A stretch of DNA of 64,000 nt from a virus (Duplodnaviria; Heunggongvirae; Uroviricota; Caudoviricetes), in IMG/VR virus record IMGVR_UViG_3300024272_001997; one strand, written 5' to 3'. The notes under the pieces were generated by a model. That model was not told where the DNA came from, made no database searches, and was given only the letters and a program-made list of their open reading frames with translations. The position numbers and the translations under genes were made by a program. This document shows positions 2,888 through 15,994 of this stretch, in pieces (the first letter of the stretch is position 1; each line of letters starts with the position of its first letter).

Positions 2888-3157
2888 TTAGAAACCTCCT
2901 GCGAAATTCAAACAGATGTGATGAAGGTGACGATTTTCGATCCAAGCGAAAGATACGGATGCGCCGGAATTATCGGGGTAGGGATCAACGATCTCATTCC
3001 ACTGGAAGAGAGGATCTTCATATTCCAAATTTTCAAAGTATTCTTCAACGACATGAAGGGCGTCTTTGGTATATTCTTTGGAAGACACAAGATGGTCTAC
3101 CTGCTCGCAGATGTTATATACTTCATCTTCAATAACAGACGGGGTGAAGCCTACCAT
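2888..3157 (-). CDS. hypothetical protein (89 aa), first gene of leftward operon
   Basis: Track ORF; GGAGGTAAAAGAATT-ATG RBS at 3166-3176. Confidence 0.6.
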   Translation of the reverse strand: MVGFTPSVIEDEVYNICEQVDHLVSSKEYTKDALHVVEEYFENLEYEDPLFQWNEIVDPYPDNSGASVSFAWIENRHLHHICLNFAGGF

Positions 3158-3188
3158 AATTCTTTTACCTCCTGGCGTATTATTCAGT

Positions 3189-3201
3189 CTTACTCAGTAA
3201 G
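3189..3201. promoter_or_regulatory. perfect 13-bp palindrome CTTACTCAGTAAG in 5' UTR of leftward operon (operator candidate)
   Basis: Self-complementary sequence read directly; loop too small for an RNA hairpin, so protein-binding site is more likely. Confidence 0.4.
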
Positions 3202-3293
3202 ATTTTGTATTACGCTCGGTACACGGAATTTTACTTTTCTGACGGAGCGCATTACCTTTTCTTTTACTATCTTTTCCTTTACTTTACATATAT

Positions 3294-3322
3294 ATTATAT
3301 CATAAAATTTTTACAAAATCAA
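3294..3322 (-). promoter_or_regulatory. sigma70-type promoter (class 2: TTGATT-17-TATAAT with T-rich spacer) for leftward operon
   Basis: Reverse complement reads TTGATTttgtaaaaattttatgaTATAAT. Confidence 0.5.
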
Positions 3323-3350
3323 TTAAGATACAATTAATTAGAATATAAAT

Positions 3351-3390
3351 GTAATACGTTGTAATACAGTGTAGGACAACGTAATACAAT
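3351..3390 (+). promoter_or_regulatory. three direct GTAATAC repeats (plus inverted copy at 3207-3213) overlapping putative rightward promoter TTGTAA-17-TAATAC; operator candidate
   Basis: TGTAATACGtTGTAATACAgtgtaggacaACGTAATACA; outer copies form an imperfect inverted repeat. Confidence 0.45.
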
Positions 3391-3431
3391 TTTTCTTTCC
3401 TAATTTTCAATAATCATACGGAGGTGATTAT

Positions 3432-3569
3432 ATGACCGTTATTACTGTAAGACTTGATGATATTGAAAAGCAATTATTACAGCAATATGCAGAAGATGAA
3501 GATCTATCTGTGTCATAGATTATAAGACGTCTAATAAAAGAATTTTTAGACGAGAAAGTTAGAAACTAA
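3432..3569 (+). CDS. ribbon-helix-helix (CopG/Arc/MetJ-like) DNA-binding protein, 45 aa, with in-frame TAG at 3516-3518
   Basis: GGAGGTG RBS 7 nt upstream; MTVITVRLDDIEKQLLQQYAEDEDLSVS[TAG]IIRRLIKEFLDEKVRN matches beta-strand/helix1/helix2 of the RHH fold; TAG falls where RHH proteins have E/Q (xSxS-E/Q-xIRxxI). Confidence 0.6.
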
Positions 3570-3584
3570 AAAGGAGCTTGTGAA

Positions 3585-3764
3585 ATGCCAAATTCAAAAG
3601 TAAAAATTGTATACTCTTTAAGAATCCATATTGGTTTACAACAATTAGGATTTTCTTATATAACAGAAATGAAGAATCCCAAGAATCCGCATCTGAATTG
3701 TTGGGTGTATCAAGAGACTCCCGCACTTCTGAAAGCGTTTGACTCCTTGGTAAAGGAGGGGTAA
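3585..3764 (+). CDS. hypothetical protein (59 aa)
   Basis: AAGGAG RBS 8 nt upstream of ATG; codon walk gives 60 codons ending TAA at 3762-3764; below the ORF-track length cut-off. Confidence 0.5.
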   Translation: MPNSKVKIVYSLRIHIGLQQLGFSYITEMKNPKNPHLNCWVYQETPALLKAFDSLVKEG

Positions 3765-4153
3765 TGATGAGCGCTATTGAAACATTTGTGGTTCACAAAG
3801 AATGGTTAGATAGTATTGCTGGATTACCCTGTGAGACTCAGGATAGAATCATTGCGGAGTTCGTTCGATATGGCTGTGGACTGGACCCTGCGCACCCTGA
3901 GGACGCAATCGCGCAGTCTTTTGTGAATATTTTGAAAAATAGAATTGATTATAGTAAGGATCAATATGCAAAGAAAGTTGCAATGGGAAAAACTGCTGGG
4001 GCTAAGAAGAAAATTGATGACAGACAAATTTATGAGTTGGCGCAAGAAGGAAAAACTGCAACTGAAATTGCAACAATTTTGAATATATCTAAATCTTCTG
4101 TTGACCACAGTGATGGTTGGAGAAAGAGAAGAGAAAACGAATTTGTATTTTGA
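3764..4153 (+). CDS. helix-turn-helix DNA-binding protein (129 aa)
   Basis: Track ORF; AAAGGAGGGG RBS; C-terminal segment IYELAQEGKTATEIATILNISKSSV resembles sigma region 4 / LuxR-type HTH. Confidence 0.65.
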   Translation: MMSAIETFVVHKEWLDSIAGLPCETQDRIIAEFVRYGCGLDPAHPEDAIAQSFVNILKNRIDYSKDQYAKKVAMGKTAGAKKKIDDRQIYELAQEGKTATEIATILNISKSSVDHSDGWRKRRENEFVF

Positions 4154-4154
4154 T

Positions 4155-4313
4155 TTGCAAAATTTGTTGCAAAGTTGCAAAAATTGTAACAATATATTCG
4201 TGCAAAGTTTGCATTTTGCATTGCATTGTACAAATCTAACTTATAACTTACAAATGCAACAATTTTGCAAATTGAATTGCAATTTTGCAACTTAATTTTT
4301 GCAATAAATTGCA
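4155..4313. repeat. array of at least 9 perfect and about 6 variant TTGCAA palindromic hexamers at roughly 9-12 bp spacing (iteron array)
   Basis: Perfect copies start near 4155, 4167, 4175, 4265, 4276, 4285, 4297, 4308; variants TTGTAA, TTGCAT, ATGCAA between; lies immediately after the HTH gene stop. Confidence 0.8.
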
Positions 4314-4322
4314 AAAATTTTA

Positions 4323-4344
4323 GGGGACCCCTCCGGGGATCCCC
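4323..4344. other. GC-rich hairpin GGGGACCCCtccGGGGATCCCC (9-bp GC stem, one bulge)
   Basis: Read from sequence; not followed by a U-tract on either strand. Confidence 0.4.
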
Positions 4345-4366
4345 ATCATAAAGGAGATAATGGAGA

Positions 4367-4594
4367 ATGATATATCAAAGACCGAAAGGTAATGTAAGAT
4401 TTGCTTATGGTAGATTTGATGATTTACCATATGGAGCCGAAGAAGTAAAGATATTTATGGTACCTGGGGATCCAGTATTATATGTAGTACCAATTGGAGA
4501 TATTCCATATGCGTATGAGAAAAATGAACCAGAAATTCCAATGTCAGATAGGCAGTGTGAGGAGTTATTGGATTATTTTAGAGAGTACGTATAA
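4367..4594 (+). CDS. hypothetical protein (75 aa)
   Basis: Track ORF; AAGGAG at 4351-4356. Confidence 0.55.
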   Translation: MIYQRPKGNVRFAYGRFDDLPYGAEEVKIFMVPGDPVLYVVPIGDIPYAYEKNEPEIPMSDRQCEELLDYFREYV

Positions 4595-4601
4595 TCTTTA
4601 T

Positions 4602-4630
4602 TTGATTTTATAAAAAAATATTGTTATAAT
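4602..4630 (+). promoter_or_regulatory. sigma70-type promoter TTGATT-17-TATAAT
   Basis: TTGATTttataaaaaaatattgtTATAAT; a second candidate (TTGGAT-16-TATAAT) lies at 4568-4595. Confidence 0.45.
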
Positions 4631-4665
4631 TATTATAGTATAAAAGAAAAGGTGGAAAAGGTTAT

Positions 4666-4830
4666 ATGATGCTTGTAGATGAAGGTTATCTTCATGACAA
4701 TACTATCGTGCGCATCGGGGAAGAGATGGGAATCTTTAGAAAACCCGATGAAAGCAAAGTAGAATATGTCATGAGGGTCATTCAAGAACTTCAATTCAAA
4801 AAGCCCTATGTAGGGGTATTCAAAAAATGA
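4666..4830 (+). CDS. hypothetical protein (54 aa)
   Basis: AAAAGGTGGAAAAGG RBS; 55 codons to TGA at 4828-4830; below ORF-track cut-off. Confidence 0.4.
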   Translation: MMLVDEGYLHDNTIVRIGEEMGIFRKPDESKVEYVMRVIQELQFKKPYVGVFKK

Positions 4831-4887
4831 ATTGAAAAAATGAAATGAAAACCGAGGAACAAAATAAAAAATGAAATGAAAATCCGA
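4822..4887 (+). repeat. three tandem copies of AAAAAATGAA(A/T)TGAAAA (start-stop mini-ORFs) in leader of 4905 gene
   Basis: Copies at about 4822, 4835, 4866; last two extend to ...AAAA(C/T)CCGA. Confidence 0.5.
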
Positions 4888-4904
4888 TTGAAAGGAAAAG
4901 TAAA

Positions 4905-5360
4905 ATGGTTTTTAGCTATAATAATTTAATGTCTGCCGCAAAGTCTGGTCAGAGACTTGGTAAGTGGAAGGATTTGCCGGTCTTTTCTTGTGATAGAATG
5001 GGACTGGCGCAAAAAGGCAATGGTGCTTATTATGTCGTCTATGATGATGACAATGCTTTCGTGAAGAAGAGCGGTTCTATGTGGTTCAGATTTGGTTATC
5101 TGGATAAGGAAGGCTCTGTTCATGAGGACACTAAGCGAGAATATTTCCCCATCCGCACAGAGAAGGACAAGGAAGTCTTCTATTATAATGAGAAGAAAGC
5201 TACAGTGGAGTTTGCGCCTGTACCGACCGTACATACTACTGCTTCTTCTGGAACTACGACTGCGGATGTGAAACTGGAGATTGACGTTGAGGGAACCTTG
5301 AAGAAGGCGAGGGAAATGACTATTGAAGATTTGCTCGCAGGATTCAACTACGGACTCTAA
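4905..5360 (+). CDS. hypothetical protein (151 aa)
   Basis: Track ORF, GAAAGGAAAAG RBS. Confidence 0.6.
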   Translation: MVFSYNNLMSAAKSGQRLGKWKDLPVFSCDRMGLAQKGNGAYYVVYDDDNAFVKKSGSMWFRFGYLDKEGSVHEDTKREYFPIRTEKDKEVFYYNEKKATVEFAPVPTVHTTASSGTTTADVKLEIDVEGTLKKAREMTIEDLLAGFNYGL

Positions 5361-5453
5361 GTGGACTCGCTTCTGGAATAAAGTATTTCCGATCGTTGAG
5401 TGGTTAGAAGATTTGGGGGAGCTTATTGTGCTCTTGGATGATATATTTGATTA

Positions 5454-5479
5454 AGGAGGACTTCGGTCCTCCTTTTTTT
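5454..5479 (+). terminator. rho-independent terminator
   Basis: AGGAGGActtcgGTCCTCCT followed by TTTTTTT. Confidence 0.7.
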
Positions 5480-5571
5480 GTTGCTTTTGGAAGAGAATTG
5501 TGAGATTGTTCTGGCCGATCGGCCCCTGGACTATCCGATCGCTTTTCCTCGTCACCGTTACCGTTGGGGCA

Positions 5572-5606
5572 TAAAAAAATCCACCCTCATTTTCAGAGGG
5601 TGGGTT
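5572..5606 (-). terminator. rho-independent terminator for gene 5693..6160
   Basis: Minus strand reads CCCACCCTctgaaaatGAGGGTGG followed by ATTTTTTT. Confidence 0.65.
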
Positions 5607-5692
5607 CTAAAATTATCTTAGCGTAGCTCTTCTCTTGGTAGTTGTAGCTTAGTCAGAAATCATCTTATGAGAATTTCTTCACAACGAGAATC

Positions 5693-6160
5693 TTACTTCA
5701 TAATTTGAGCCAAAAATTCCTTTAGAGCTTCATCATCGCTCTTGGCGTGAATGGTGGCGGAACGCTTCTTAGGATTTAGACCAACCAGCTTATCCTCGGG
5801 GATAGCATCGATTGCGGTCTTCAGTTCCTTCATTGCGCCCATCAGGGCGAAAGTCTGATCCAGGGCCTCAACCAGAGTGTCCAGGTCATCGTCAGTGATT
5901 TCCATCTCATCCATGGCGGTGTTGCCAGTCAGATCAGCGTAATCACGGAACAGGTCGACCATCTTCAGACCCAGATCCTTTTTCTTTGCGGCCAGCTCCA
6001 CCTTGGCGACACGCTCTGCCTCGGCCTTACGGGCGGCCTCCTGCTCAGCACAGAAGTCAGACATTGCGGCGTTCATGGCATCTGCCATGGCCTGACCAAT
6101 TGCATTGATATCCTGACCATTGCGCAACTGGTCCAGGAAATAGTTCTTATCATAAACCAT
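5693..6160 (-). CDS. hypothetical coiled-coil protein (155 aa)
   Basis: Track ORF trimmed to Met with GAGGT RBS (MVYDKNYF...); the upstream Met lies inside the promoter. Confidence 0.6.
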   Translation of the reverse strand: MVYDKNYFLDQLRNGQDINAIGQAMADAMNAAMSDFCAEQEAARKAEAERVAKVELAAKKKDLGLKMVDLFRDYADLTGNTAMDEMEITDDDLDTLVEALDQTFALMGAMKELKTAIDAIPEDKLVGLNPKKRSATIHAKSDDEALKEFLAQIMK

Positions 6161-6197
6161 TGGTATATACCTCACATTTCTTATTTATTGTACTTAT

Positions 6198-6226
6198 ATT
6201 ATATCAAAAAATTTTATAAAAATCAA
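6198..6226 (-). promoter_or_regulatory. sigma70-type promoter class 2 (TTGATT-17-TATAAT, spacer tttataaaattttttga)
   Basis: Read on reverse complement. Confidence 0.5.
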
Positions 6227-6242
6227 ATCCGATCGGCGCTTT

Positions 6243-6273
6243 CTGCGTTCTCCGAACGCAGATTGGATTTTTT
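6243..6273 (+). terminator. hairpin CTGCGTTCtccGAACGCAG followed by attggaTTTTTT; overlaps candidate plus promoter TTGGAT-18-TATAAT (6264-6293)
   Basis: Read from sequence. Confidence 0.35.
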
Positions 6274-6299
6274 ATAAAAAAAATGTTATAATAAAAAAA

Positions 6300-6500
6300 A
6301 AGAACATTTTTACCGATCGGGACTTTCAATTCAATGTTTCGCCATATGAGAATTCCCGATCGGCCCTCCGGGGTGGGGTGCTAGATTTCGGGAGAACGGG
6401 GCATATGCGGAAGTCGCTAGAAGTAGCAGAAAAATTCCATATGGGGTATACCGATCGGAAAATCGGGCCCTGACCTCCGTTCAGGGCCCGTTGAACCACA
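6300..6500. ncRNA. ORF-less GC-rich segment apparently transcribed from both strands (minus class-1 promoter at 6506-6534, plus promoter at 6264-6293); contains CCGATCGG motifs and a 9-bp GC hairpin at 6467-6490
   Basis: No plausible ORF (6326..6517 begins inside the -10 element); hairpin GGGCCCTGAcctccgTTCAGGGCCC; CATATGG repeated. Confidence 0.3.
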
Positions 6501-6505
6501 CCCTT

Positions 6506-6534
6506 ATTATACCACAAGTCGAGGTATTTGTCAA
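6506..6534 (-). promoter_or_regulatory. class-1 consensus promoter TTGACA-17-TATAAT with no ORF downstream
   Basis: Reverse complement GGGGTTGACAaatacctcgacttgtggTATAATAAGGG. Confidence 0.6.
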
Positions 6535-6551
6535 CCCCTAAATCAAAAAAA

Positions 6552-6573
6552 AATCGACTGATTTCTCAGTCGA
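6552..6573 (-). terminator. terminator hairpin overlapping stop of gene 6566..6736
   Basis: ATCGACTGAgaaaTCAGTCGAT followed by TTTTTTTTT on minus strand. Confidence 0.55.
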
Positions 6574-6736
6574 TTTCTAAACAGCCATCCCAATGGAAGT
6601 GCGCCGTCACATGGAGGCTTGCACCGCACTCGGGGCAGATTGTGTAGGAAGTGCCGGTGACAAAATCGCCGTTGTCTTCCAGATCGTCGAACTCGTCCAC
6701 ATCAAAGGACGCACCGCAGTAAGGACATTCACCCAT
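6566..6736 (-). CDS. zinc-ribbon protein (56 aa, CxxC...CxxC)
   Basis: GGAGGTATGAAAA RBS; MGECPYCGASFDVDEFDDLEDNGDFVTGTSYTICPECGASLHVTAHFHWDGCLEID; below track cut-off. Confidence 0.5.
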   Translation of the reverse strand: MGECPYCGASFDVDEFDDLEDNGDFVTGTSYTICPECGASLHVTAHFHWDGCLEID

Positions 6737-6749
6737 TTTTCATACCTCC

Positions 6750-6938
6750 TTAGCAATCATAGGTGTAGCAACCTTCGTAGGGGTCGAAGCCGAAGTCATC
6801 GTCAATGTCTTCGGGTTCGTAGTCATCGTCGTACTCACAGGGGGCGGGAGTGCCATCATCGGGATAGTGGCAACGGGGGTATTCTTCGTCCTCGTCCTTC
6901 CAGTAGTAACCGCAATTAGAATCAGCACAGGTAGCCAT
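6750..6938 (-). CDS. acidic Cys-containing protein (62 aa)
   Basis: Track ORF; GGAGGAAAAC RBS. Confidence 0.5.
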   Translation of the reverse strand: MATCADSNCGYYWKDEDEEYPRCHYPDDGTPAPCEYDDDYEPEDIDDDFGFDPYEGCYTYDC

Positions 6939-7015
6939 TTTGTTTTCCTCCTTGTTTGATTTTCTTTATTATACCATGTCGGGGGGCATTTGTCAAGCCC
7001 CCCGACAACTTTTTT

Positions 7016-7609
7016 TTAGAAAGGCAGTTCGTCTGCCAGTCCGGCAACCTCATTCCATTCCTCGACAATCGCAGGAATATCGATGAAAGGACGGCTTGCC
7101 ATGTAGTCCGCCATGTGGACACATCTGTCCACATTGGTAAAGGGTCTGTCCTCTTTCTCGGTAGACCACTGACCCATGTGAGCGCAGACAGCGTTCAGAA
7201 GCAGAAAATGGGGTTCGCCGTAACCAGTGACCAGACAGTAATCACGGAAAGCAGTCGCCGCATTTCTGGCGTGATTCTTGTACTCGGCCTTGTCGAAACC
7301 ATCCAGACCATACTTGACAGTATCGTGAATGATACAGGCGACAATGACGAAATCCTTGTATTCTTCCTTCATGTATGCGTAAGAACTCATGCGGAGCAGT
7401 TCTTCGGCGAACATGACAACCGCCTTGGTGTGGCGAACCAGACCGCCAACGCCCTGGGACATCTTGGGGTGATACTTGCCAGAACTGGAAGCACCGTCTG
7501 TCCAGAAGTAGTCGGGAACTCGGTCGATCAGGTATCCCTTGACCGCCATGCGGAGATCCTCGTCCAGGATGAGGGACAGTTCCCTCTCAAAAAGCTTGAT
7601 GTTCTTCAT
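7016..7609 (-). CDS. HD-domain phosphohydrolase (197 aa)
   Basis: Track ORF trimmed to Met preceded by GAGGAATTGATACCC; contains H...HD motif (GKYHP, IIHDTVKYG) typical of the HD superfamily. Confidence 0.7.
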   Translation of the reverse strand: MKNIKLFERELSLILDEDLRMAVKGYLIDRVPDYFWTDGASSSGKYHPKMSQGVGGLVRHTKAVVMFAEELLRMSSYAYMKEEYKDFVIVACIIHDTVKYGLDGFDKAEYKNHARNAATAFRDYCLVTGYGEPHFLLLNAVCAHMGQWSTEKEDRPFTNVDRCVHMADYMASRPFIDIPAIVEEWNEVAGLADELPF

Positions 7610-7656
7610 GGGTATCAATTCCTCTCTCATTTGATGTACTCATTATAGCATAGGAT

Positions 7657-7833
7657 TTAGAGTTTGTCAAGTACTTTTTTAGAAAATTCTGTGTATTCAA
7701 TACACATTTTCAAAGTATCTTTTTCAACTGTCACACGCACAGAACTAACAAGGGGATTTTGTATCATCAGTTCGCCGGCCATTTTCTTGACCTCTGAATA
7801 GGGGATACCCTTACCAATTTCAATTCTAGCCAT
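7657..7833 (-). CDS. hypothetical protein (58 aa)
   Basis: Track ORF trimmed to Met with GGAGGG RBS. Confidence 0.45.
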   Translation of the reverse strand: MARIEIGKGIPYSEVKKMAGELMIQNPLVSSVRVTVEKDTLKMCIEYTEFSKKVLDKL

Positions 7834-7857
7834 TGTTTTTCCCTCCATGGTTCTGGG

Positions 7858-8028
7858 TTACCCCAGAACCACAAAATTTTTGCCGTAGTGGTCGTGAACG
7901 CCTTCTTCTACATTGTAGGTGATGGACAGTTCATCCATGTAAATGACCTTGGAATCACCAAAACCGAGTTCTTCCATGGTCTGAAGCTGGCGGAGCAGTT
8001 CACTAACAGTAATGCACTTTTTATTCAT
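7858..8028 (-). CDS. hypothetical protein (56 aa)
   Basis: GAGGAGGTAACC RBS; MNKKCITVSELLRQLQTMEELGFGDSKVIYMDELSITYNVEEGVHDHYGKNFVVLG; below track cut-off. Confidence 0.45.
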   Translation of the reverse strand: MNKKCITVSELLRQLQTMEELGFGDSKVIYMDELSITYNVEEGVHDHYGKNFVVLG

Positions 8029-8149
8029 GGGGGTTACCTCCTCTTGATTTATAATACAATTATACCACCGATTCCGGGAAAATCAAGTTGGAGTATTGCA
8101 CAAAAAATGCGCCCCAAAAATTGTTGGAGTTGGTTATTTTGCCGAAAAA

Positions 8150-8236
8150 CCGGCCCGCGCGCACGTAAAGGGCCGGCCGAAATTTGTGCAAATTGCACAA
8201 AAACGAAGAAAAACCGGGATTTTTCCCGGTTTTTCT
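8150..8236 (+). ncRNA. degenerate copy of GC-hairpin/terminator cassette
   Basis: Hairpin CCGGCCC-13nt-GGGCCGG then GCCGAAATTTGTGCAAATTGCACAAAAA then bidirectional terminator AAACCGGGAtttttCCCGGTTT; upstream promoter degenerate. Confidence 0.25.
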
Positions 8237-8603
8237 AACTTTTTGCCTTTCTTTTTGCGATTAAAGTCAATTCGTAGGCATTTTCACCAATTTTGAAGCT
8301 AATTTGACGAGTTTTGTTGGTGATTTCCACTGAAACGTAGCCTTTTTCCGCTAAAAAGTGGGCGATTTCCGCAATTACAGCCTCTTTTTCCGGATTTTCG
8401 GTGGGTTTTCGTGCGGATTTGGTGGTTTTTGGCGATTTTGTGTCCGCATTAGCGTTTTTCATAGCCAGTTTGTGTGCTTCTGGACTCAAATCAAAGTCCA
8501 TTTGCTCTCCCCTGTCGATGCATTTATCATCGGCAAGAATGGCTTCGGCTTCGCTTCTGGAACACTTGAGAGAACGCATGATGCGTTCGATTTGGCTATC
8601 CAT
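8235..8603 (-). CDS. hypothetical protein (122 aa), paralog of 11293..11649; TAG is its stop codon
   Basis: Track ORF; shares N-terminal SR(S/E)EAIxLxD(D/E)DKxIDRGE motif with its paralog; stop codon TAG at 8235-8237 followed by the terminator. Confidence 0.6.
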   Translation of the reverse strand: MDSQIERIMRSLKCSRSEAEAILADDKCIDRGEQMDFDLSPEAHKLAMKNANADTKSPKTTKSARKPTENPEKEAVIAEIAHFLAEKGYVSVEITNKTRQISFKIGENAYELTLIAKRKAKS

Positions 8604-8702
8604 GGTGGTTGCCCCCTTTCCTTACTTAGTATAGCACATTTGGGGGGATTTGTCAAGAGGAAAGTTTGGGGGAGAATTTCTCCCCCTCTCCCCTCTCTCT
8701 GG

Positions 8703-9095
8703 TTAGACCAGAGAGAAGAAAGCCTTTCTCTTGTCCTCGGTTCTCTTGACCTGGCCTGCATCAACCATCTGGCGAACCAGAGCGGACATTCTCTGGTTGG
8801 TCATGGTGTCAGGCAGGTTGGGAACCTTTTTCAGCAGTTCGGACACGGTGAACAGCTGATTGGGATTGGCTTCCATCACAGCCAGAACACCGGCCTTGAT
8901 GGTTGCGTTGGCTTCCTGCTGAGCGGTGGGCTTCTTCTCAGCGGAGTTCTTCTTGGCCAGCAGTTCCTGCTCGTGGGCGATGAACTCAGCCAGCATGGGG
9001 TTGTTGGCGACTTCGGGGATGTTCGCAATCATAGCGAACTTCTGAGCCTTGGTCAGCTTGGTGGATGCGGAAGCGGAAGAAGTAGTGTTAGCCAT
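8703..9095 (-). CDS. putative winged-helix protein (130 aa), paralog of 11729..12106
   Basis: Track ORF; about 70 percent identity to paralog over whole length; GAAAGGAATTGATACT-ATG leader. Confidence 0.65.
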   Translation of the reverse strand: MANTTSSASASTKLTKAQKFAMIANIPEVANNPMLAEFIAHEQELLAKKNSAEKKPTAQQEANATIKAGVLAVMEANPNQLFTVSELLKKVPNLPDTMTNQRMSALVRQMVDAGQVKRTEDKRKAFFSLV

Positions 9096-9366
9096 AGTAT
9101 CAATTCCTTTCGGTTTTAGCGACTTGAACCTGTCGATGATTTATTCTGTAAGAGGTGTTCCTCTTTACATTCTTATTATAGCACATTCGGCTCGGTTTGT
9201 CAAGAACTTTTTTTCTTTTTTTTTCTTGACCTTGGAGGGTTGCCCCTCTCTTTTTGTACCCTCATTGTATCACATCTTGGGCGGTTTGTCAAGAGGTTTT
9301 TTCAACTTTTTTTTTCGCTCGGCTCGCTCTGTCCTGCGTTGTTGCCTGTCCCTCACTGACAAGGGT

Positions 9367-9395
9367 ATTATACCATAGCCAGAAGCGGATTGCAA
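9367..9395 (-). promoter_or_regulatory. orphan promoter TTGCAA-17-TATAAT, back-to-back with plus promoter at 9454
   Basis: Reverse complement TTGCAAtccgcttctggctatggTATAAT; no ORF downstream before next promoter. Confidence 0.45.
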
Positions 9396-9453
9396 TAGGC
9401 AAAGTATACAAAATCGGGAGAAATAATTTGTGCATTTTTTTCGCATTTTCCTC

Positions 9454-9482
9454 TTGACAAATTGCTGGGGGTATGGTATAAT
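9454..9482 (+). promoter_or_regulatory. orphan consensus promoter CCTCTTGACAAA-17-TATAAT on plus strand
   Basis: TTGACAaattgctgggggtatggTATAAT; fires toward 3' end of the convergent gene 9569..10006. Confidence 0.65.
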
Positions 9483-9488
9483 GGAAAT

Positions 9489-9576
9489 TCTGCCCGGGCA
9501 CACTCGCGCCCGGGCCGCCGAAATGTCAATTGGTAATTTTGCACAAAAAAGTGAGGGTTGCCCCTCACTCATTTTT
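9489..9576 (+). ncRNA. candidate small RNA: 5' GC hairpin GCCCGGGC-acactcgc-GCCCGGGC plus terminator hairpin GTGAGGGttgcCCCTCAC-tcaTTTTT
   Basis: Starts about 7 nt after -10, ends at intrinsic terminator that also terminates the minus gene; no ORF. Confidence 0.35.
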
Positions 9577-10006
9577 GAATGACCGTTTCCAGATTGATTC
9601 CGGCGCTGACTTCTTCCCAGTTCTCCACATTGTCAACATGGACAACCTTGTGACAGCCATTGACCATCATCAGAGAATAGGTTGCGTTCTCATAACCGCA
9701 CAGAACCTGGACAACCTCTTTGCCGATTGCCATGCCGAAGCCGGCTTCCCATGCCGTACCAGAGTCGGAATACATACCGAAGTTGAGAACCATGACCACA
9801 TCACAGTCATGGATGGCTTCAATGTCCATTTCAAAGACACGCTTTGCCCAGTCAGAGTTCGGCAAGTCCCATGCGTTGGGAACTTCATGCTCCTGGGGTA
9901 CATGAACCGGATAACCTGCGGAGCGCAGACGAGAGATGGTTTCCTTGTAGACTACCAATTCAGTAGCATTGAAGAACGGCGAAGCCAGATAGATTTTCTT
10001 TTTCAT
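9569..10006 (-). CDS. nucleoside 2-deoxyribosyltransferase-like protein (145 aa)
   Basis: Track ORF trimmed to Met after GGAAAGGAACTGAACACT; KIYLASPFF...MVLNFGMYSDSGTAWEAGFGMAIGKEVV matches the NDT/Rcl family signature. Confidence 0.65.
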   Translation of the reverse strand: MKKKIYLASPFFNATELVVYKETISRLRSAGYPVHVPQEHEVPNAWDLPNSDWAKRVFEMDIEAIHDCDVVMVLNFGMYSDSGTAWEAGFGMAIGKEVVQVLCGYENATYSLMMVNGCHKVVHVDNVENWEEVSAGINLETVIQK

Positions 10007-10062
10007 AGTGTTCAGTTCCTTTCCTTTTTGTATTCTCATTATACCATGAGAAAAGGCTTTTG

Positions 10063-10398
10063 TCAAGCCTTTTCTACTCGGTAGAAGAAAAATTTATTGA
10101 CAATTCTTTTTGCCTTTTTGTCGTGGCAAAAATAAATACTTCCGAACAGATGTGTGGAATCGTCCATCAATTTGAGATTTTGAATTGCTTCCAATTTCAC
10201 AGGCTTGCTTACATTGCGGAAGAGTTTCCAGAAGAAAACGAATGGGAAAAGCAGGATTTCCAGAATAATTTCCAGAATACCAGTGATGAGCAGATAGGGA
10301 AGCTGGATGAAGTTCATCCATCTCTGGCCCCACAGTTCTTCGTGAATGAAAGACAGGATAATGTATCCGGCAAGAATACCTAATAAGAAATTCAACAT
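10063..10398 (-). CDS. membrane protein (111 aa)
   Basis: Track ORF trimmed to Met with GAGGTG RBS; two TM helices. Confidence 0.5.
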   Translation of the reverse strand: MLNFLLGILAGYIILSFIHEELWGQRWMNFIQLPYLLITGILEIILEILLFPFVFFWKLFRNVSKPVKLEAIQNLKLMDDSTHLFGSIYFCHDKKAKRIVNKFFFYRVEKA

Positions 10399-10462
10399 TT
10401 TACACACCTCATTTGTTTTTCTTTATTATAGCATGAATTGGGGGTTTTGTCAACCCCCAATT

Positions 10463-10771
10463 TTACGGAAGTTCATCGGGATAGCAGAAGCATTCCCATG
10501 CGATACTCTCCCAAGTTTCCATACACTTGGAAGTGTTGCACAGCCAGATCGTGACAAAGAAAGTATTGACAACAGGCAGACCAATCATCAAAGCGCACTG
10601 GATGAGACTGATGAAAGTCTTTGCCCAGTTCGTAGGCTGTTTGACCCTGACCATGCCCTTGGCCTTGCACTCCTTAAAAGTGGGAATCATAGCCAGACTG
10701 GCGAACACGAACAGATACAGGAAAGCCAGAATTGCGCTTGCGACATAGACCCAGAAGAAAATTTCTAACAT
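10463..10771 (-). CDS. membrane protein (102 aa)
   Basis: Track ORF trimmed to Met with GAGGT RBS; 3 hydrophobic helices. Confidence 0.5.
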   Translation of the reverse strand: MLEIFFWVYVASAILAFLYLFVFASLAMIPTFKECKAKGMVRVKQPTNWAKTFISLIQCALMIGLPVVNTFFVTIWLCNTSKCMETWESIAWECFCYPDELP

Positions 10772-10843
10772 AACATTTACCTCACTCATTTAATTTTCTT
10801 TATTATAACATAGGTTTGCGAATTTGTCAAGAGTTATTTTGTA

Positions 10844-11056
10844 TCAAAGGGACATTTTCTGTCCCCAGATACAACGCTCAAAGGCAGGCTTGTAGACATT
10901 GTTCCAAATGAACTCCATCTCGTTGTAAGCTTCTCTGTCCTCCACAATCATTGCGTAGAACTGAACTGCTCCGAACGCCTGATGAATCCACAGTTCTTTG
11001 CCGTCCTTCTGGCACTGAGCCAAAAGCCAATCGATGTGCTGTTTCAGTTTATCCAT
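10844..11056 (-). CDS. hypothetical protein (70 aa)
   Basis: Track ORF trimmed to Met after AGGAGGTAATCACC; upstream Mets lie in promoter. Confidence 0.5.
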   Translation of the reverse strand: MDKLKQHIDWLLAQCQKDGKELWIHQAFGAVQFYAMIVEDREAYNEMEFIWNNVYKPAFERCIWGQKMSL

Positions 11057-11175
11057 GGTGATTACCTCCTTGATTTGTACCCTAATTATAGCATAGGTTT
11101 CGGGATTTGTCAAGGGGTTTTGCAAAAATAATTTTTGCAAGAAAAATTGCTGAAATAGGGGGTTAGTAGCGAAAT

Positions 11176-11234
11176 GCCGGGCGCCACACTCGTCAGCGCC
11201 CGGCCATTATACCACATTCTTTTGAAAATGTCAA
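11176..11234 (-). promoter_or_regulatory. class-1 promoter immediately abutting GC hairpin GCCGGGCGC-cacactcgtca-GCGCCCGGC (inverted-orientation copy of the cassette)
   Basis: TTGACAttttcaaaagaatgtggTATAAT then hairpin 1 nt later; no terminator follows. Confidence 0.4.
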
Positions 11235-11263
11235 GCATTATTTTTTCGTCAAAATGCACAAAA

Positions 11264-11294
11264 AATCTGTCCGCGCTGGGCGGACAGATTTCTC
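11264..11294 (-). terminator. terminator for gene 11293..11649
   Basis: TCTGTCCGCccagcGCGGACAGA followed by TTTTTTGTGC on minus strand. Confidence 0.55.
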
Positions 11295-11649
11295 AGGAGC
11301 GGGGACACGCAAGGGTGACTTTGTACTTCGTGCCGTTGTGGGTGAACAGGAACTCACGCTCGGCATTGGTGACATTGAACTCGGTGATTCCCAGTCCATT
11401 CAGACCTTCCATCATTGCGGAACACAGCTCTGCCTTTTCCGGCTTGGCTTTCTTCTCTCTTTTGGTGGTGGTCTGCTTGCGGTCTGCCTGTCGTGCTTTC
11501 TTTGCGCCCGCTTCCAGTTCGGGGTCAAGCTCAAACAACTTTTCGCCCCTGTCGATTCGCTTGTCTTCGTCCATCAGTTCGATGGCTTCCTCACGGCTGA
11601 TGTTCAGCGACTTCATCAGCTTCTGGATTTTCTCTTCCATCGGGGTCAT
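11293..11649 (-). CDS. hypothetical protein (118 aa), paralog of 8235..8603
   Basis: Track ORF. Confidence 0.6.
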   Translation of the reverse strand: MTPMEEKIQKLMKSLNISREEAIELMDEDKRIDRGEKLFELDPELEAGAKKARQADRKQTTTKREKKAKPEKAELCSAMMEGLNGLGITEFNVTNAEREFLFTHNGTKYKVTLACPRS

Positions 11650-11728
11650 CTCCTTTCTGTACTAAGTATAGCACAGATTGCTGGATTTGTCAAGGGGAAA
11701 TTTTGGGGGAGTTTCCTCCCCCATCGGG

Positions 11729-12106
11729 TTACGCAATGGCGAAGAACGCCTTGCGCTTGTCCTCGGAGCGGACAACCTGACCCGCATCGACCATCTGACG
11801 GACGAGTGCGCTCATGCGCTGATTGGTCATGGTGTCGGGCAGACCGGGCACTTCCTTGAGCAGTTCGGACACGGTGCGCTTCTTGCCGTCAGCCAGAACC
11901 TCCAGAACGGCGGTCTTGATTACGGCATTTGCCTCCTGCTGGGCAGTGGGCTTCTTGTCGGCGGAGTTCTTCTTTGCCAGAAGCTCAACTTCGTGGGCGA
12001 TGAACTCGGACAGCATGGGGTCAGCCTTGACGGCGGGCAGTTCAGCCAGAATGGCGAACTTCTGAGCCTTGGTCAGACGAGCGGAAGAAGAAGTAGTGTT
12101 AGCCAT
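11729..12106 (-). CDS. putative winged-helix protein (125 aa), paralog of 8703..9095
   Basis: Track ORF trimmed to MANTTSS... matching its paralog's start. Confidence 0.65.
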   Translation of the reverse strand: MANTTSSSARLTKAQKFAILAELPAVKADPMLSEFIAHEVELLAKKNSADKKPTAQQEANAVIKTAVLEVLADGKKRTVSELLKEVPGLPDTMTNQRMSALVRQMVDAGQVVRSEDKRKAFFAIA

Positions 12107-12284
12107 AGTATCGATCTCCAATCTTGCGGTAGGTCGCAACCCAAATTTGATTTATCTGTAAGAGGTGTTCCTCTTTACATTCTTATTGTATCACATCTTG
12201 AGCCAGTTGTCAAGAGGTTTTTTGAATTTTTTTTTGGCTTTCACTCCACCTAGTCCCTAATACAGCCTCGGGATTGGTTCACAT

Positions 12285-12380
12285 TTATATTCCGCACAAC
12301 GGAGCGACCGTGCGGTCGAGGACTTTGTCGTCATGGTCTGACACGACTCTCGTGGGTCTTGTCTCAACGACTTCTGCCAT
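12285..12380 (-). CDS. possible micro-protein (31 aa)
   Basis: Sits 17 nt downstream of a class-1 promoter with the conserved leader GGGTACAAAAGAGGGAAGC-ATG; MAEVVETRPTRVVSDHDDKVLDRTVAPLCGI. Confidence 0.25.
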   Translation of the reverse strand: MAEVVETRPTRVVSDHDDKVLDRTVAPLCGI

Positions 12381-12689
12381 GCTTCCCTCTTTTGTACCCT
12401 TATTATAACACATCTTGGGGAGTTTGTCAAGAGGTTTTTTTTCAGATTTCCTTCTGTTCGGTCATCTTGTGGTCACTTGCTCCGCAAGCCCTACCGCCTC
12501 CGACCACGGCTAACCTCTTGACTTCTCTTACATTGTATCACAACTTGGGGGATTTGTCAAGGGGTTTCTTGAAGTTTCTTCAAGAAAGTTGCGTGCCGGA
12601 AGGTTGGGTCGTACACAGCCTCTGCCAACAGTTCGACGCCTAGCGTGGGTTTCCCAACTCCCGAGGCGTTCCCTCCCCTTGACACCAAT

Positions 12690-12718
12690 ACTATACCACA
12701 TCTGCCCCCAGATTGCAA
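12690..12718 (-). promoter_or_regulatory. orphan promoter TTGCAA-17-TATAGT back-to-back with plus promoter at 12776
   Basis: Same architecture and flanking sequence as 9367-9395. Confidence 0.4.
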
Positions 12719-12775
12719 TTGGCAAAATACACAAAATCGGGAAAAATAATTATTTATTATTTGTGCAATTTTCCT

Positions 12776-12805
12776 CTTGACAAATTGGCTGGCGGTGTGG
12801 TATAA
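12776..12805 (+). promoter_or_regulatory. orphan consensus promoter on plus strand (18-bp spacer)
   Basis: CCTCTTGACAaattggctggcggtgtggTATAAT. Confidence 0.6.
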
Positions 12806-12811
12806 TAAAAT

Positions 12812-12875
12812 TTCGGCGCCCATCAACCGTGGGCGCCGCGCCGAAAAAGCCACCCCAAAAATGGGGTGGCTTTCG
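12812..12875 (+). ncRNA. candidate small RNA: hairpin CGGCGCCCA-tcaaccg-TGGGCGCCG then GCGCCGAAAAA then terminator hairpin AGCCACCCCAaaaaTGGGGTGGCT
   Basis: Same architecture as 9489..9576 with compensatory stem changes. Confidence 0.35.
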
Positions 12876-12877
12876 TA

Positions 12878-13306
12878 TCAGCTGGGCAGACCTCCGCCCA
12901 TAACCTGAATCACCTTCAAAACCATGTCCTCGGCTGACATACACTCTTCGGGTTCCTCGGGGGGCAGGAGTTCGGCTTTCTGCTGTTCGGCCAGGGCGGA
13001 CATGACCTCGAAAATGTTGGGGATGATTTCTCGCTCGACCTCGAGTTCGGGTTCGGGGATGGGTTCCTCGTCCTGTTCCCAGAGGTGCTTCATCAGCACC
13101 CCCAGAATCATCAGAGAGAACTCGTCCGTGGCGAACTGGTCGGGGTGGTTCACCAGAGCCAGAACCTCGCCGGTGTAGCCGTCGCACACATGGGCATGAT
13201 TGCCGTTCGTGTCAGCTCTCAGCAGTTCCAGGATTGCGATTTCGGGGTCGTCAGTCTTGACAGTGACCTCAGCGTCGGAGTAAAAAACAGAGATTACATA
13301 CTTCAT
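12878..13306 (-). CDS. acidic hypothetical protein (142 aa)
   Basis: Track ORF; AAAGGAAAGGAACTGATACCT-ATG leader. Confidence 0.6.
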   Translation of the reverse strand: MKYVISVFYSDAEVTVKTDDPEIAILELLRADTNGNHAHVCDGYTGEVLALVNHPDQFATDEFSLMILGVLMKHLWEQDEEPIPEPELEVEREIIPNIFEVMSALAEQQKAELLPPEEPEECMSAEDMVLKVIQVMGGGLPS

Positions 13307-13405
13307 AGGTATCAGTTCCTTTCCTTTGTTGTACCAACATTATAACATGGATTAGTTGGTTTGTCAAGAGGTTTTTGAAAAATTTTTTTTAGGGGATGGG
13401 GCGGA

Positions 13406-14077
13406 TTACTCCGCCCACTTGGGGAAACACTTGTTGTATTCCTTGCCCTTGGCATCCCAGCAATGCACATTCTTGGTGAACTTCTTGTGTGTCCGCAGAC
13501 AGCGGACAAAAATCTGCATTTCAATCATGGCATCAGCCAGAGCCGTGTGTTCCTCGATGAAGTCGGGGTCGTTAGTGATGAACGCATACACGGCTTCCGC
13601 AGTGGTCGCACAAGTGTTCTTGCTTCTGGACTGGAAGCCATTTGCACGGCAAAACTTGGCATAGCCTTTCTGGTGGCAGATGGTCTGGGTTGCCATCAAC
13701 CAAAGGTCGATGAACTCGAACTCCTCAGCCAACGCACGGCAGGCAGTTTTGGTAAGGTCGAAAGCGGAATTGTAAGCACAGATGTACTTGACGCCGTAGA
13801 AGTGGCACAGATTGGAAACAATGCTGACTGCCTCGGCTTCGGTAGTCACCGCAGACATTTCACCGCTTGCCAGTCTCTTGGCATAGATGGGGAAGTTCTT
13901 CTTGGCATAGTCATCGTTGCGGATTTCCTCATAGTGTTCCATCACCAGAAGATTGGTGGTTGCGAAGATGTTACCCTCTCTGTCATGGATGGTACAGCCG
14001 ACATTGTACATTCCGGAGGGAGTGGAAGCACCGCCTACAGTCTCGGTGTCCAGAGTACAGAAAATTGTCTTATTCAT
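13406..14077 (-). CDS. DEDDh (DnaQ-like) 3'-5' exonuclease (223 aa)
   Basis: Track ORF trimmed to Met after AAAGGAAAGGAATTGATACCA; Exo I FCTLDTETVG, Exo II YNSAFDL, Exo III HTALADA. Confidence 0.75.
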   Translation of the reverse strand: MNKTIFCTLDTETVGGASTPSGMYNVGCTIHDREGNIFATTNLLVMEHYEEIRNDDYAKKNFPIYAKRLASGEMSAVTTEAEAVSIVSNLCHFYGVKYICAYNSAFDLTKTACRALAEEFEFIDLWLMATQTICHQKGYAKFCRANGFQSRSKNTCATTAEAVYAFITNDPDFIEEHTALADAMIEMQIFVRCLRTHKKFTKNVHCWDAKGKEYNKCFPKWAE

Positions 14078-14145
14078 TGGTATCAATTCCTTTCCTTTGA
14101 TGAACTTATTGTATCACAAAATAGCCGGTTTGTCAAGGGATTTTT

Positions 14146-14595
14146 TTAGAATCCCTGACACATTTTTTCCAGCTTCGCCCAGTTGACGGAGAAGACATTG
14201 CGGAAACCCTCAAACTCCATCTCGGCGTAGTCCATGAAGTTCCGCAGTTCAGAGTAGCAGGGCAGATGGCCATCGAACCGCAGACCGAACTCACGAGCCA
14301 GCTTCTTGCACCACAGTTCATCCAACTGGTCTTCGGTGAACTTCTCGTGGGTCTTGGGGTTGATAACCACACGGACTTCCTTGTGGTAGGTAGTCTTCTC
14401 AGTGCGGACGACCTGCACCAGACCATACTCCCGGGCAGTTTCCAGACAGACGGAAGCGGAATAGGGATAGCGACCATCGGAGAAGCGGTCACGAACCTCA
14501 TTGAACTGCTTCTTGGTGAACTCAACAGGCAGAGCCTTGAAGGTTTCACGAGTCTTGGGAGCCAGTGCCATCATAGAAGAGAAATTGTGTGCCAT
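14146..14595 (-). CDS. hypothetical protein (149 aa)
   Basis: Track ORF preceded by class-1 promoter at about 14660-14688. Confidence 0.6.
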   Translation of the reverse strand: MAHNFSSMMALAPKTRETFKALPVEFTKKQFNEVRDRFSDGRYPYSASVCLETAREYGLVQVVRTEKTTYHKEVRVVINPKTHEKFTEDQLDELWCKKLAREFGLRFDGHLPCYSELRNFMDYAEMEFEGFRNVFSVNWAKLEKMCQGF

Positions 14596-14969
14596 AATAT
14601 TTTACCTCATTTCATTTATTTGGTGGGGCTTACCATCGTTTCCCTCACCTTGTATTTGTATTATAGCATAGATTGTTTGGTTTGTCAAGAGGTTTTCTCA
14701 AAAAATTCCGGACTTTTTTGATTATCTCCGATACTTCTTGCCTCAAAAGACCTGTTTTAGATTGTTGCCCCAGCTCATTCCTTGTACCCTCGGGCAAGGA
14801 CTATGTCAGTCCGCAACTTCTCTCTTTCCGCTTTCTCTTGGCGATTTTCTCCGTCGAGGTTCCCCTCTTGACACAGTCATTGTACCACAGATTTTGGGAT
14901 TTGTCAACTCGTTAAAATACACAAATAATCGCCGAAAATAAATGCCTAGGTTGGTTATTGTGCCAAATT

Positions 14970-15058
14970 CGGCGCGCCTGGACCGTGGGCGCGCCGCCGA
15001 ACTTTTGTGCAAAATGACGAAAAATCCCTTTCCATTTCTGGAAAGGGATTCCAAAATC
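14970..15058 (+). ncRNA. degenerate hairpin/terminator cassette
   Basis: CGGCGCGCC-tggaccgtg-GGCGCGCCG then GCCGAAC...; terminator ATCCCTTTCCAtttcTGGAAAGGGAT; upstream promoter weak (TATTGT -10). Confidence 0.25.
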
Positions 15059-15428: not shown

Positions 15429-15503
15429 AGTATCAATTCCTTTCAGTTCTCTTTTGTTGTAATTATTGTATCATAGGTTTTCGGATTTGTCAAGAGGAAA
15501 TTC

Positions 15504-15944: not shown

Positions 15945-15994
15945 TTGATTCAGTTCCTTTCCTTTTTTGTACCTTAATTATAACACGGAATACC

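Follow-up and report, generated by a model that had tools for sequence, protein, structure and literature searches.

A conserved, protein-free element marked by clustered palindromes in TAG-recoding phages is a candidate small structured RNA

What do clustered palindromes with a GATC core do in phage DNA that encodes no protein? The question is raised by a locus in a 64,000-nucleotide (nt) stretch of a Caudoviricetes virus (IMG/VR record IMGVR_UViG_3300024272_001997; the whole stretch is called the window here). An initial annotation of positions 5,480 to 6,500 had listed six copies of CCGATCG(G), at about 5513, 5534, 6229, 6312, 6354 and 6450, where fewer than one per kb would be expected by chance. 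These copies surround a small gene and a segment free of open reading frames (ORFs) that is entered by promoters from both sides, and they were suggested to mark a SeqA/Dam-controlled origin, a set of repressor operators or a structured RNA.

The cluster is real and far exceeds chance. The window holds five copies of the octamer CCGATCGG (5515-5522, 6229-6236, 6313-6320, 6356-6363 and 6451-6458), all of them confined to 5515-6458. Dinucleotide-preserving shuffles of the 64-kb window (n = 100) contained a mean of 0.31 copies and a maximum of 2, with none reaching five. The count of six requires correction, as the copy near 5534 is only the 7-mer CCGATCG followed by C (5535-5541), and an additional CCGATCG at 5389-5395 had been missed. 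The hexamer CGATCG has 7 of its 11 window copies inside 5390-6457, and the form with a relaxed centre, CCGNNCGG, has 5 of 7 at the locus. The copies do flank gene 5693..6160, which lies on the minus strand. Collectively, the results below show that the cluster marks an element that encodes no protein and is strongly conserved, most probably a gene for a small structured RNA.

The element is conserved and syntenic in related phages

A search with the 155-amino-acid (155-aa) protein encoded by gene 5693..6160 yielded one related contig in which the ORF-less segment was also conserved. From this starting point, a scan for GCTAGAAGTAGC, 8-12 nt and CATATGGGG recovered 12 stretches from viral contigs, 48 from metagenome contigs and 5 from genome bins, which together comprise 53 distinct element variants. 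Loci fetched independently of the pattern, through a neighbouring HD protein, provided more diverged copies (L106-L109; L numbers denote related loci). A covariance model was derived from the alignment; it detects 61 copies and matches the window at 6340-6496 with 141 bits. The homologues come from approximately 60 phage contigs of ruminant and gut samples. Three of the five genome-bin matches are metagenome-assembled genomes (MAGs) of Acutalibacteraceae, and one of these three is a 176-kb contig, comparable in size to related viral contigs of 171 and 176 kb. The likely hosts of these phages are Clostridia.

In all homologous copies the element sits beside the same 155-aa gene. Gene order, as seen in about 30 loci, is constant: a 151-aa gene (plus strand), converging terminators, the 155-aa gene (minus strand), the element, and then small genes and the HD protein (minus strand). 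The core of the element is nearly invariant in loci whose flanking proteins are down to 33-44% identity. The segment is, as initially described, unusually GC-rich for its surroundings (56% G+C at 6340-6496, compared with about 46%) and adjoins an A+T-rich stretch at 6195-6312. It also lacks a credible ORF, as had been stated: short frames shift between variants and no reading frame is conserved when these frames are compared. Two candidate coding frames, one reading M-F/I-R-H-M-R-I-P-D-R-P and one at the third CATATG, were rejected because neither is kept in frame between variants.

The element matches nothing described so far that we could find. Searching Rfam 15, which had been proposed as a check, gave no window match at gathering scores and only chance-level matches at E <= 10 in 5300-6700; in 12 related loci, matches at E <= 1 were likewise at chance level. 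Membership in any described Rfam 15 family was therefore rejected. A tRNA and tmRNA search of the window was negative, annotated phage records gave no DNA match in either near or distant searches, and a literature search on the motif returned nothing relevant. Several likenesses were considered and dropped for want of sequence or model support, namely those to the repeat handle of Cas12a, boxB of lambda, single-strand origins of plasmids, SPO1 late promoters and HDV-like 'theta' ribozymes; Rfam, which includes CRISPR repeat and HDV families, gave no match.

Some relatives carry two copies, either tandem or nearby. The tandem units, at L086 3207-3495, L063 5642-5958, L092 4300-4610 and L094 1704-2013, are arranged head to tail on the same strand, with the second unit more diverged. 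Long ORF-less stretches also occupy the equivalent place in L110-L113, whose HD proteins are 54-63% identical; these stretches repeat the related motifs TTTCGGGAAAAAT, GCTAGAGT... and CCATATT and are scored weakly by the covariance model (33 bits for L110). The element family may thus be broader than the sample collected here. In the window itself, a 23-bit match at 11051-11209 was rejected as a full second copy, being a reverse-complemented early promoter, an A/T tract and a common hairpin module. The element is an undescribed, widely distributed non-coding family in phages that, as described below, recode TAG.

Anatomy of the element

The features of the locus in the window, from left to right, are as follows.

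5453-5474 (plus), 5603-5581 (minus) and 6578-6549 (minus): terminators near the locus, from a scan
5513-5566, no strand assigned: second conserved non-coding block, between converging terminators
5693-6160, minus: gene for the 155-aa acidic, all-helical protein, always adjacent to the element
6198-6226, minus: proximal promoter of the 155-aa gene, TTGATT-17-TATAAT with TG
6229-6236, no strand assigned: site 0, CCGATCGG, 2 nt upstream of the -35 box of the 155-aa gene's own promoter
6242-6262, plus: T-run hairpin, an insertion that separates site 0 from P_plus in this phage and is absent in L001 and L002
6263-6292, plus: P_plus, the element promoter, TTGGAT (6263-6268), 18-nt spacer, TGtTATAAT (6284-6292), read directly from the sequence
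About 6299, plus: predicted start of the P_plus transcript
6299-6491, plus: ORF-less conserved element, candidate structured RNA of about 190 nt (from the covariance model, relatives and fold)
Between P_plus and site 1, plus: A/U-rich leader
6313-6320, plus: site 1, CCGATCGG, paired with site 3 in the predicted fold
6343, plus: first CATATG of the element
6356-6363, plus: site 2, CCGATCGG, and then a small hairpin with a UCCG loop (GCCC UCCG GGGU)
6380-6396, plus: GCTAGA then TTTCGGGAGAA ('box X', consensus TTTCGGGAAAAT), a conserved block for which no pairing partner was detected
6402-6443, plus: near-invariant core, CATATG (6402), 8 nt, GCTAGA, 16 nt, CATATG then GGG
6416-6427, plus: GCTAGAAGTAGC, which holds the core GCTAGA, with an A/U tract next
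6438-6446, plus: CATATGGGG
6451-6458, plus: site 3, CCGATCGG, predicted to pair with site 1 as the 3' strand of a closing helix
6464-6490, plus: terminal GC hairpin CGGGCCCUGA / UCAGGGCCCG, preceded by GGAAAAUC (AAAAUC in element order)
6506-6534, minus: P_minus, a perfect early promoter facing the element, TTGACA-17-TATAAT with upstream TG
6549-6578, no strand assigned: hairpin between an A run and a T run, scored as a terminator on the minus strand only

The GC hairpin and both promoters noted initially are genuine. The hairpin has perfect 10-nt arms (6464-6473 and 6481-6490, 100% complementary), and the right-hand, class-1 promoter is P_minus, one of about 35 such promoters in the early region. 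P_minus adjoins the element in 32 of 50 variants, a terminator taking its place in the others; it is absent, for example, in the L014/L072/L078 type. The left-hand, class-2-like promoter falls below the scan threshold in the window, and relatives carry TTGACN-17-TGTTATAAT at that place. The gap between the core GCTAGA and CATATG is constantly 16 nt, even where the spacer sequence has changed. GCTAGA-N16-CATATG was considered as a phage promoter class and rejected, as both exact copies lie inside the element and relaxed patterns match only late ORFs.

The second conserved block, at 5513-5566, holds the palindrome GGCCGATCGGCC (5513-5524), the CCGATCG of 5535-5541 and the hexamers TCGTCA, CCGTTA and CCGTTG. 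It is conserved in nucleotide sequence where the flanking proteins are only 37-40% identical, and its reading frame is not kept; the non-coding stretch conserved in this way spans 5498-5566.

GATC is dispensable in the conserved sites

The proposed link to Dam methylation and SeqA depends on the GATC core, which proved to be the variable part of the sites. Over the 53 variants, the central dinucleotide of CCGNNCGG is AT in 84 sites, GT in 26, GG in 11, AC in 10, TT in 5, GC in 4 and AA in 3, and the conserved part consists of the outer CCG and CGG. The relatives with only GT or AC sites are exactly those almost devoid of GATC (0-5 seen per 12-14 kb, with 27-43 expected). These GATC-avoiding phages carry CCGGTCGG or CCGACCGG at the same site positions, and the elements of GATC-free relatives lack GATC and retain everything else. 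Counts by relative include 0 versus 28-47 expected in L017, 0 versus 35-46 in L027 and 2 versus 43-50 in L070. Relatives with CCGATCGG sites show milder avoidance, and the window contains 131 GATC versus about 222-235 expected. GATC is presumably counter-selected by host restriction, and the depletion points to restriction pressure that differs among hosts. GATC has been purged genome-wide in some of these phages and the element was therefore rebuilt without it, as CCGGTCGG/CCGACCGG.

A GATC cluster acting through Dam methylation and SeqA-like binding, as at oriC, is thus extremely unlikely. What speaks for it is the presence of seven GATC-containing copies within 1.07 kb of a GATC-poor phage (131 versus about 222-235 expected). 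It is contradicted because the core is not conserved and purged relatives keep the sites: they show GGTC, GACC, GGGC, GAAC or GTTC at the same positions, and the elements of GATC-free relatives are otherwise intact. Moreover, the likely hosts are Clostridia, in which SeqA is not known. An oriC-like location, at a skew minimum between divergent genes, was also rejected, as cumulative GC skew peaks locally at this locus, which adjoins a gene convergence, with the minimum and the divergence at about 22.4 kb. No DnaA-box array was seen by eye in the region, no dedicated search having been run. Judged by comparison of the relatives, the GATC core is incidental and dispensable, and is most unlikely to be a methylation or origin signal.

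Evidence for a proposed structured plus-strand RNA

We favour, tentatively and at somewhat under an even chance, the reading of segment 6299-6491 as a structured non-coding RNA of about 190 nt on the plus strand, with helices built from the palindromes. Of the readings offered initially, this is the best supported, given the promoter, the lack of an ORF, the compensation in the hairpin and the mutually pairing palindromes, although it corresponds to no described RNA family.

The element has its own promoter at a conserved position. Directly upstream in 31 variants, and about 20 nt before site 1, lies TTGACN-17-TGTTATAAT (specifically TTGAC(T/A) or TTGATT, 17 nt, and TGTTATAAT or TGGTATAAT). 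In extended or tandem elements a single P_plus still precedes the whole array, and the element is bracketed as a unit because the facing promoter or terminator sits beyond the extension, whether this is a second hairpin module or a second unit.

The terminal hairpin shows compensatory change. Across the 61 copies, both partners vary in 7 of its 10 pairs; pairing is kept in 84% of cells, compared with 25-44% when the partner is slid, and none of 500 shuffles reaches the observed covariation score. A naive covariation scan was uninformative, being dominated by A/G changes opposite an invariant U.

The palindromes have the potential to pair with one another, since each octamer is self-complementary and any two CCGAUCGG copies can therefore pair. 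The plus-strand fold of the window element has an energy of -72.1 kcal/mol (z = -2.7). Minimum-energy folds were predicted for 31 variants: of their 80 sites, 69 are paired at 6 or more of the 8 bases, and 44 pair with another site. The commonest site-site pairing in these folds is the recurrent closing helix between sites 1 and 3. Site 2, whose position is kept in most variants, offers an alternative, in which CCGAUCGGGA (6313-6322) pairs with UCCCGAUCGG (6354-6363) over 10 bp. Complementarity extends beyond the octamer: the arms in the window span 13 nt (92% complementary), and L001 has 11 bp.

Changes within the sites are in keeping with this pairing. Compensated pairs of CCGGUCGG with CCGACCGG occur in L002, L064, L044 and L086, and L070 has CCGACCGG at site 1 opposite a fully complementary CCGGTCGG at site 3. 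Other pairs are possible on the plus strand only, through G.U (GT:GT in L070 and L073, GT:AT in L001 and L059, AT:GT in L077 and L090). Among the AC sites examined inside the element, a GT partner is available for all except that of L069, and in the GATC-purged relatives the site changes from A to G or T to C retain pairing. By strand, 40 site pairs are better on the plus strand, 15 on the minus strand and 53 equal; by folding energy, the plus strand is more stable in 28 of the 31 variants, but with equal z-scores, and folding energy was therefore rejected as a guide to the strand.

Several observations weigh against this reading. Folding z in the 31 variants is modest and alike on both strands (-1.8 and -2.0), RNAalifold gives just two consensus hairpins within the conserved 3' domain, and the GCUA/UAGC hairpin is lost in L106-L109, though GCTAGA and CATATG stay exactly 16 nt apart there. 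Several blocks are kept as sequence at fixed spacing without covariation, a form of conservation that is equally typical of protein sites on DNA and of RNA. The plus-strand promoter is missing in L062, L106-L109, L042/L057 and L017, and the scan called no plus-strand terminator between 6490 and 6650. The 6464-6490 hairpin is called an intrinsic terminator on neither strand, being followed by GUUGAAC on the plus strand and by AUUUUCC, with four U only, on the minus strand; the 6549-6578 hairpin, which ends the upstream minus-strand gene, is the sole candidate stop for the plus transcript. Motif copies also lie outside the proposed transcript, namely site 0 by the -35 boxes and the 5515 site between two terminators. 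In the terminal hairpin, G.U outnumbers A.C by 9 to 2 in the outer stem, compared with 34 versus 41 overall, which leaves the strand unsettled. Finally, a search of the window for trans targets of at least 12 nt gave only A/T-rich chance matches.

If the element does act as an RNA, host RNA polymerase would produce it early, using the extended -10 promoter that belongs to the element (6263-6292), with the CCGAUCGG octamers serving as helix strands. In the predicted fold, site 1 (6313) and site 3 (6451) would close the molecule around a multi-branched core, the GC hairpin at 6464-6490 would cap its 3' side, and the alternative 10-bp pairing of site 1 with site 2 makes a conformational switch possible. 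The near-invariant unpaired blocks UUUCGGGAAAAU, CAUAUG, GCUAGA and CAUAUGGGG may serve as the surfaces that a partner, protein or RNA, would contact. The RNA would head into the early promoter at 6534-6506, whose transcript would cross the element towards the 155-aa gene; with opposed transcripts over the element, the RNA would therefore also be a cis-antisense brake on the P_minus transcript in this phage. What the analysis shows is the conservation, the synteny, the promoter, the covariation of the hairpin, the potential of the sites to pair and the dispensability of GATC; a discrete RNA species, its 3' end, its partner and its regulatory effect are what we infer.

Competing explanations

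A DNA-level regulatory array is a serious rival, because of the conserved blocks without covariation and the motif copies outside the transcript, and we consider it possible, if on the unlikely side. Here a dimeric phage or host protein would read CCG-N2-CGG and others CATATG, GCTAGA and TTTCGGGAAAA, jointly controlling the promoter of the 155-aa gene and the two facing promoters, with the GC hairpin as a minus-strand attenuator and the RNA helices a by-product of the palindromes. The initial suggestion of repressor operators retains some plausibility from position: in at least 12 variants, site 0 (6229) is found 1-2 nt upstream of the P_plus -35 box, and L002 has it placed symmetrically, with a divergent -35 box on either side. 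The element is directly upstream of the 155-aa gene promoter in every variant, including those without either flanking promoter, and one copy, part of the 12-bp palindrome GGCCGATCGGCC, is conserved in a place that should see little transcription, between converging terminators. Also suggestive of DNA recognition are the outer CCG and CGG triplets, which do not drift, unlike the inner stem of the terminal hairpin; the exact 16-nt GCTAGA/CATATG spacing despite spacer change; and the joint switch of whole site sets from AT to GT in some phages. The suggestion falters on the protein, as no syntenic neighbour has a DNA-binding domain match, the 155-aa protein is acidic, helical and without a family, and a nearby zinc-ribbon gene is not syntenic across variants. 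Also against an array is the conservation, in about 30 variants, of a promoter that leads into 190 nt without coding capacity. The sites other than site 0 lie at about +15 to +160 from the predicted plus-strand start. A symmetric DNA site should also show no strand bias, yet GT outnumbers AC by 26 to 10, and the partial second arms and complementarity beyond the octamer suit hairpins better than operators. The RNA and DNA readings are compatible, as the RNA might titrate or guide a protein that also binds the octamer at promoters.

Two further proposals seem improbable to a similar degree. Under one, the element is a replication origin or packaging recognition region, with repeated protein motifs beside the A+T-rich 6195-6312 stretch and transcription from both sides for activation or priming. 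It would suit a unique conserved ORF-less region that repeats CCGNNCGG three to six times, CATATG three times and GCTAGA twice beside an A+T tract and facing promoters. In addition, the metagenome contigs L070, L086 and L090 begin at or within about 10 nt of CCGNNCGG in the converging block, which could reflect a physical genome end or just an assembly break. The locus, however, lies at a transcription convergence and skew maximum rather than at the divergence and minimum near 22.4 kb, and neither a replication gene nor a terminase gene was recognised within about 16 kb. Iterons as a rule change together with their initiator, whereas here the core is almost invariant and the neighbours diverge; furthermore, the element lies away from the contig ends in the 171-kb and 176-kb contigs, and some relatives have two tandem copies. 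The other proposal places a functional RNA on the minus strand, as a cis-acting leader of the 155-aa mRNA starting from 6534-6506, with the GC hairpin and AUUUUCC forming a promoter-proximal attenuator. The perfect promoter about 8 nt upstream of the hairpin, the short U run that follows it on that strand, similar GC hairpins with short U runs in the minus-strand early region (8132, 9483, 11175, 12814, 14965, 16960 and 19956) and the presence of the facing promoter without the plus-strand promoter in L062 and L106-L108 all argue for it. Yet the promoter is not beside the element in 18 of 50 variants, the GT:GT, GT:AT and AT:GT site pairs become A.C mismatches on the minus strand, the 155-aa gene has its own promoter downstream of the element, and the minus-strand fold of the window element has a z of only -1.2. 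Very unlikely, too, is a non-functional relic left by duplicated cassettes of promoter, hairpin and terminator, a type abundant in the early region. Such cassettes do share the terminal hairpin module and box-X-like sequences with the element, the module follows directly after plus-strand promoters at 9454, 12777 and 16931, and the weak model match at 11051-11209 contains an early promoter in reverse; nevertheless, near-invariance across about 60 variants with proteins at 33-44% identity is unexpected for a relic, as is the retention of the sites through a genome-wide GATC purge.

With regard to the contig starts, two lie exactly at the junction of GG and CCGNNCGG and the third 10 nt earlier (L070, L086, L090). 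A scan of viral contigs for ends at the 5515 site returned only chance matches in G+C-rich phages.

Phage context and neighbouring genes

The source phage is large and siphovirus-like; its head proteins have distant relatives in the human-gut phage phAss-1 and in big phages of Bacillus and Lactococcus. Small genes on the minus strand make up an early block at 5.7-22 kb, and among their products are enzymes of nucleotide metabolism: a nucleoside deoxyribosyltransferase, a 5'-nucleotidase, FolD and the HD protein. Within 5000-23000, about 35 perfect or one-off TTGACA-17-TGnTATAAT promoters, almost all of minus-strand orientation and numbering about one for each small gene, are among 68 promoter-like sites, compared with 26 expected. 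From 22.5 kb onwards a plus-strand late block has 33% G+C, versus about 46% in the early block. The composition of the window is sharply split, with about 45-52% G+C in 1-22000 and about 30-40% in 22000-64000, along with a dip to 33-35% at 3000-5000.

The two blocks also differ in their stop codons. In the late block (22478-63109, plus strand), every long frame ends in TAA and in-frame TAG is found: 36 in the 3,129 codons of 39284-48673, 6 in the 1,866 codons of 48774-54374 and 9 in 37163-38557. Frames between 23.6 and 32.8 kb (23650-24864 and 28569-32800) have none, and the late frames run almost end to end once TAG is read through. The early genes (5693-22022, minus strand) stop at TAA (31), TGA (25) and TAG (1). 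We therefore conclude that the phage recodes TAG; the tRNA search found no suppressor tRNA in the window. TAG recoding has been reported for the phAss-1 group, whose tape-measure proteins have 3,149-3,209 aa (PMC10607447).

Within the minus-strand early block, three paralogous plus-strand units (9454-9575, 12777-12870 and 16931-17030) share a near-identical perfect promoter (cctcTTGACAaattggctgg...GTATAAT), GGAAAU, a GC hairpin, CCGAAA and a terminator. Their predicted transcripts are about 75-100 nt, and their hairpin module resembles the 3' hairpin of the element. GC hairpins of the terminal type occur at 8132, 9483, 11175, 12814, 14965, 16960 and 19956, three of them directly after perfect plus-strand promoters and before terminators. 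An ORF-poor stretch at 19900-20230, upstream of an early promoter, holds an exact TTTCGGGAAAA (20098-20108; about 0.03 estimated by chance) and a GC hairpin (19956-19987) that is picked up by the covariance model.

Among the neighbouring proteins, the 155-aa protein has hundreds of homologues in public metagenomes and no match in Pfam, PHROG, NCBIfam or the PDB; its AlphaFold2 model is helical, at low confidence (pLDDT 65). The only candidate DNA-binding protein near the element, 2 kb away, is a 129-aa protein (3764-4153, plus strand) with a DUF6291 domain (E = 1e-8) and a C-terminal helix-turn-helix that resembles sigma-70 region 4, resolvase or LuxR types. It has homologues in five loci only (L042, L056, L069, L079 and L082), and a literature search on DUF6291 returned no papers. 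A 56-aa four-cysteine zinc-ribbon protein (6566-6736, minus strand) weakly matches Lar-like restriction-alleviation proteins (phrog_6422, E = 3e-5) and has homologues in only four related loci.

Discussion

Lambda OOP and P22 sar are phage cis-antisense small RNAs embedded in early operons, and by analogy the candidate RNA would work most like them. It would similarly be a short non-coding transcript with its own strong promoter, opposed within an early operon and overlapping a transcript from the other strand, here the leader from 6534-6506. The facing promoter that would make such an opposite transcript adjoins the element in 32 of 50 variants, with a terminator in the rest. Nonetheless, the element is two to three times longer than these RNAs, lacks a clear terminator of its own and has no sequence or Rfam relation to them, and its long near-invariant core, which persists in variants without the facing promoter, is not explained by overlap.

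The Rfam families ROOL and GOLLD, RNAs of phage, rumen or Firmicutes origin, offer a second comparison. Like them, the element is ORF-less, conserved, multi-hairpin and of phage and gut or rumen origin, and its build is modular, being duplicated in some relatives; its conserved unpaired palindromes could mediate RNA-RNA contacts. The element differs in its length (about 190 nt versus more than 500), in having no Rfam match at E <= 10 and in showing covariation for only some helices.

Two comparisons concern DNA elements. Phage P1 pac and oriC are precedents for clusters of GATC-containing motifs, and the locus shares with them a local GATC-repeat cluster in non-coding DNA flanked by promoters. 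This resemblance is superficial, as GATC is dispensable here, GGTC or GACC substitute for it and the outer CCG...CGG is what is conserved. Phage operator arrays, such as lambda OR/OL or class II activator sites at -41.5, resemble the locus in an 8-bp dyad motif that occurs three to six times around promoters with one copy abutting -35 boxes. Most copies in the element, however, lie 20-160 nt inside a transcribed ORF-less segment and are mutually complementary beyond the core, and no cognate DNA-binding protein was identified.

The relatives that purged GATC provide a natural experiment. They rebuilt the sites base by base, indicating that CCG..CGG and mutual complementarity matter and that GATC does not. 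Clusters of GATC should accordingly not be read as Dam/SeqA signals without comparative data. The core of the element is better conserved than the surrounding proteins, which points to an interaction with something that cannot easily change. A long-shot extension is a new phage RNA class of TAG-recoding Clostridia phages, in which the CAUAUG and CCGAUCGG palindromes allow refolding or self-assembly and the RNA sequesters or guides a conserved host or phage factor, with a role in the early-to-late switch, which in these phages also changes the genetic code; such a role would explain why the core is far more conserved than any neighbouring protein.

If the array reading is true, the element defines the recognition sequence of an early-gene regulator in these phages. 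If instead the RNA reading holds, the element would represent an undescribed and abundant non-coding RNA family, with about 60 variants, in large uncultured gut and rumen phages that reassign TAG.

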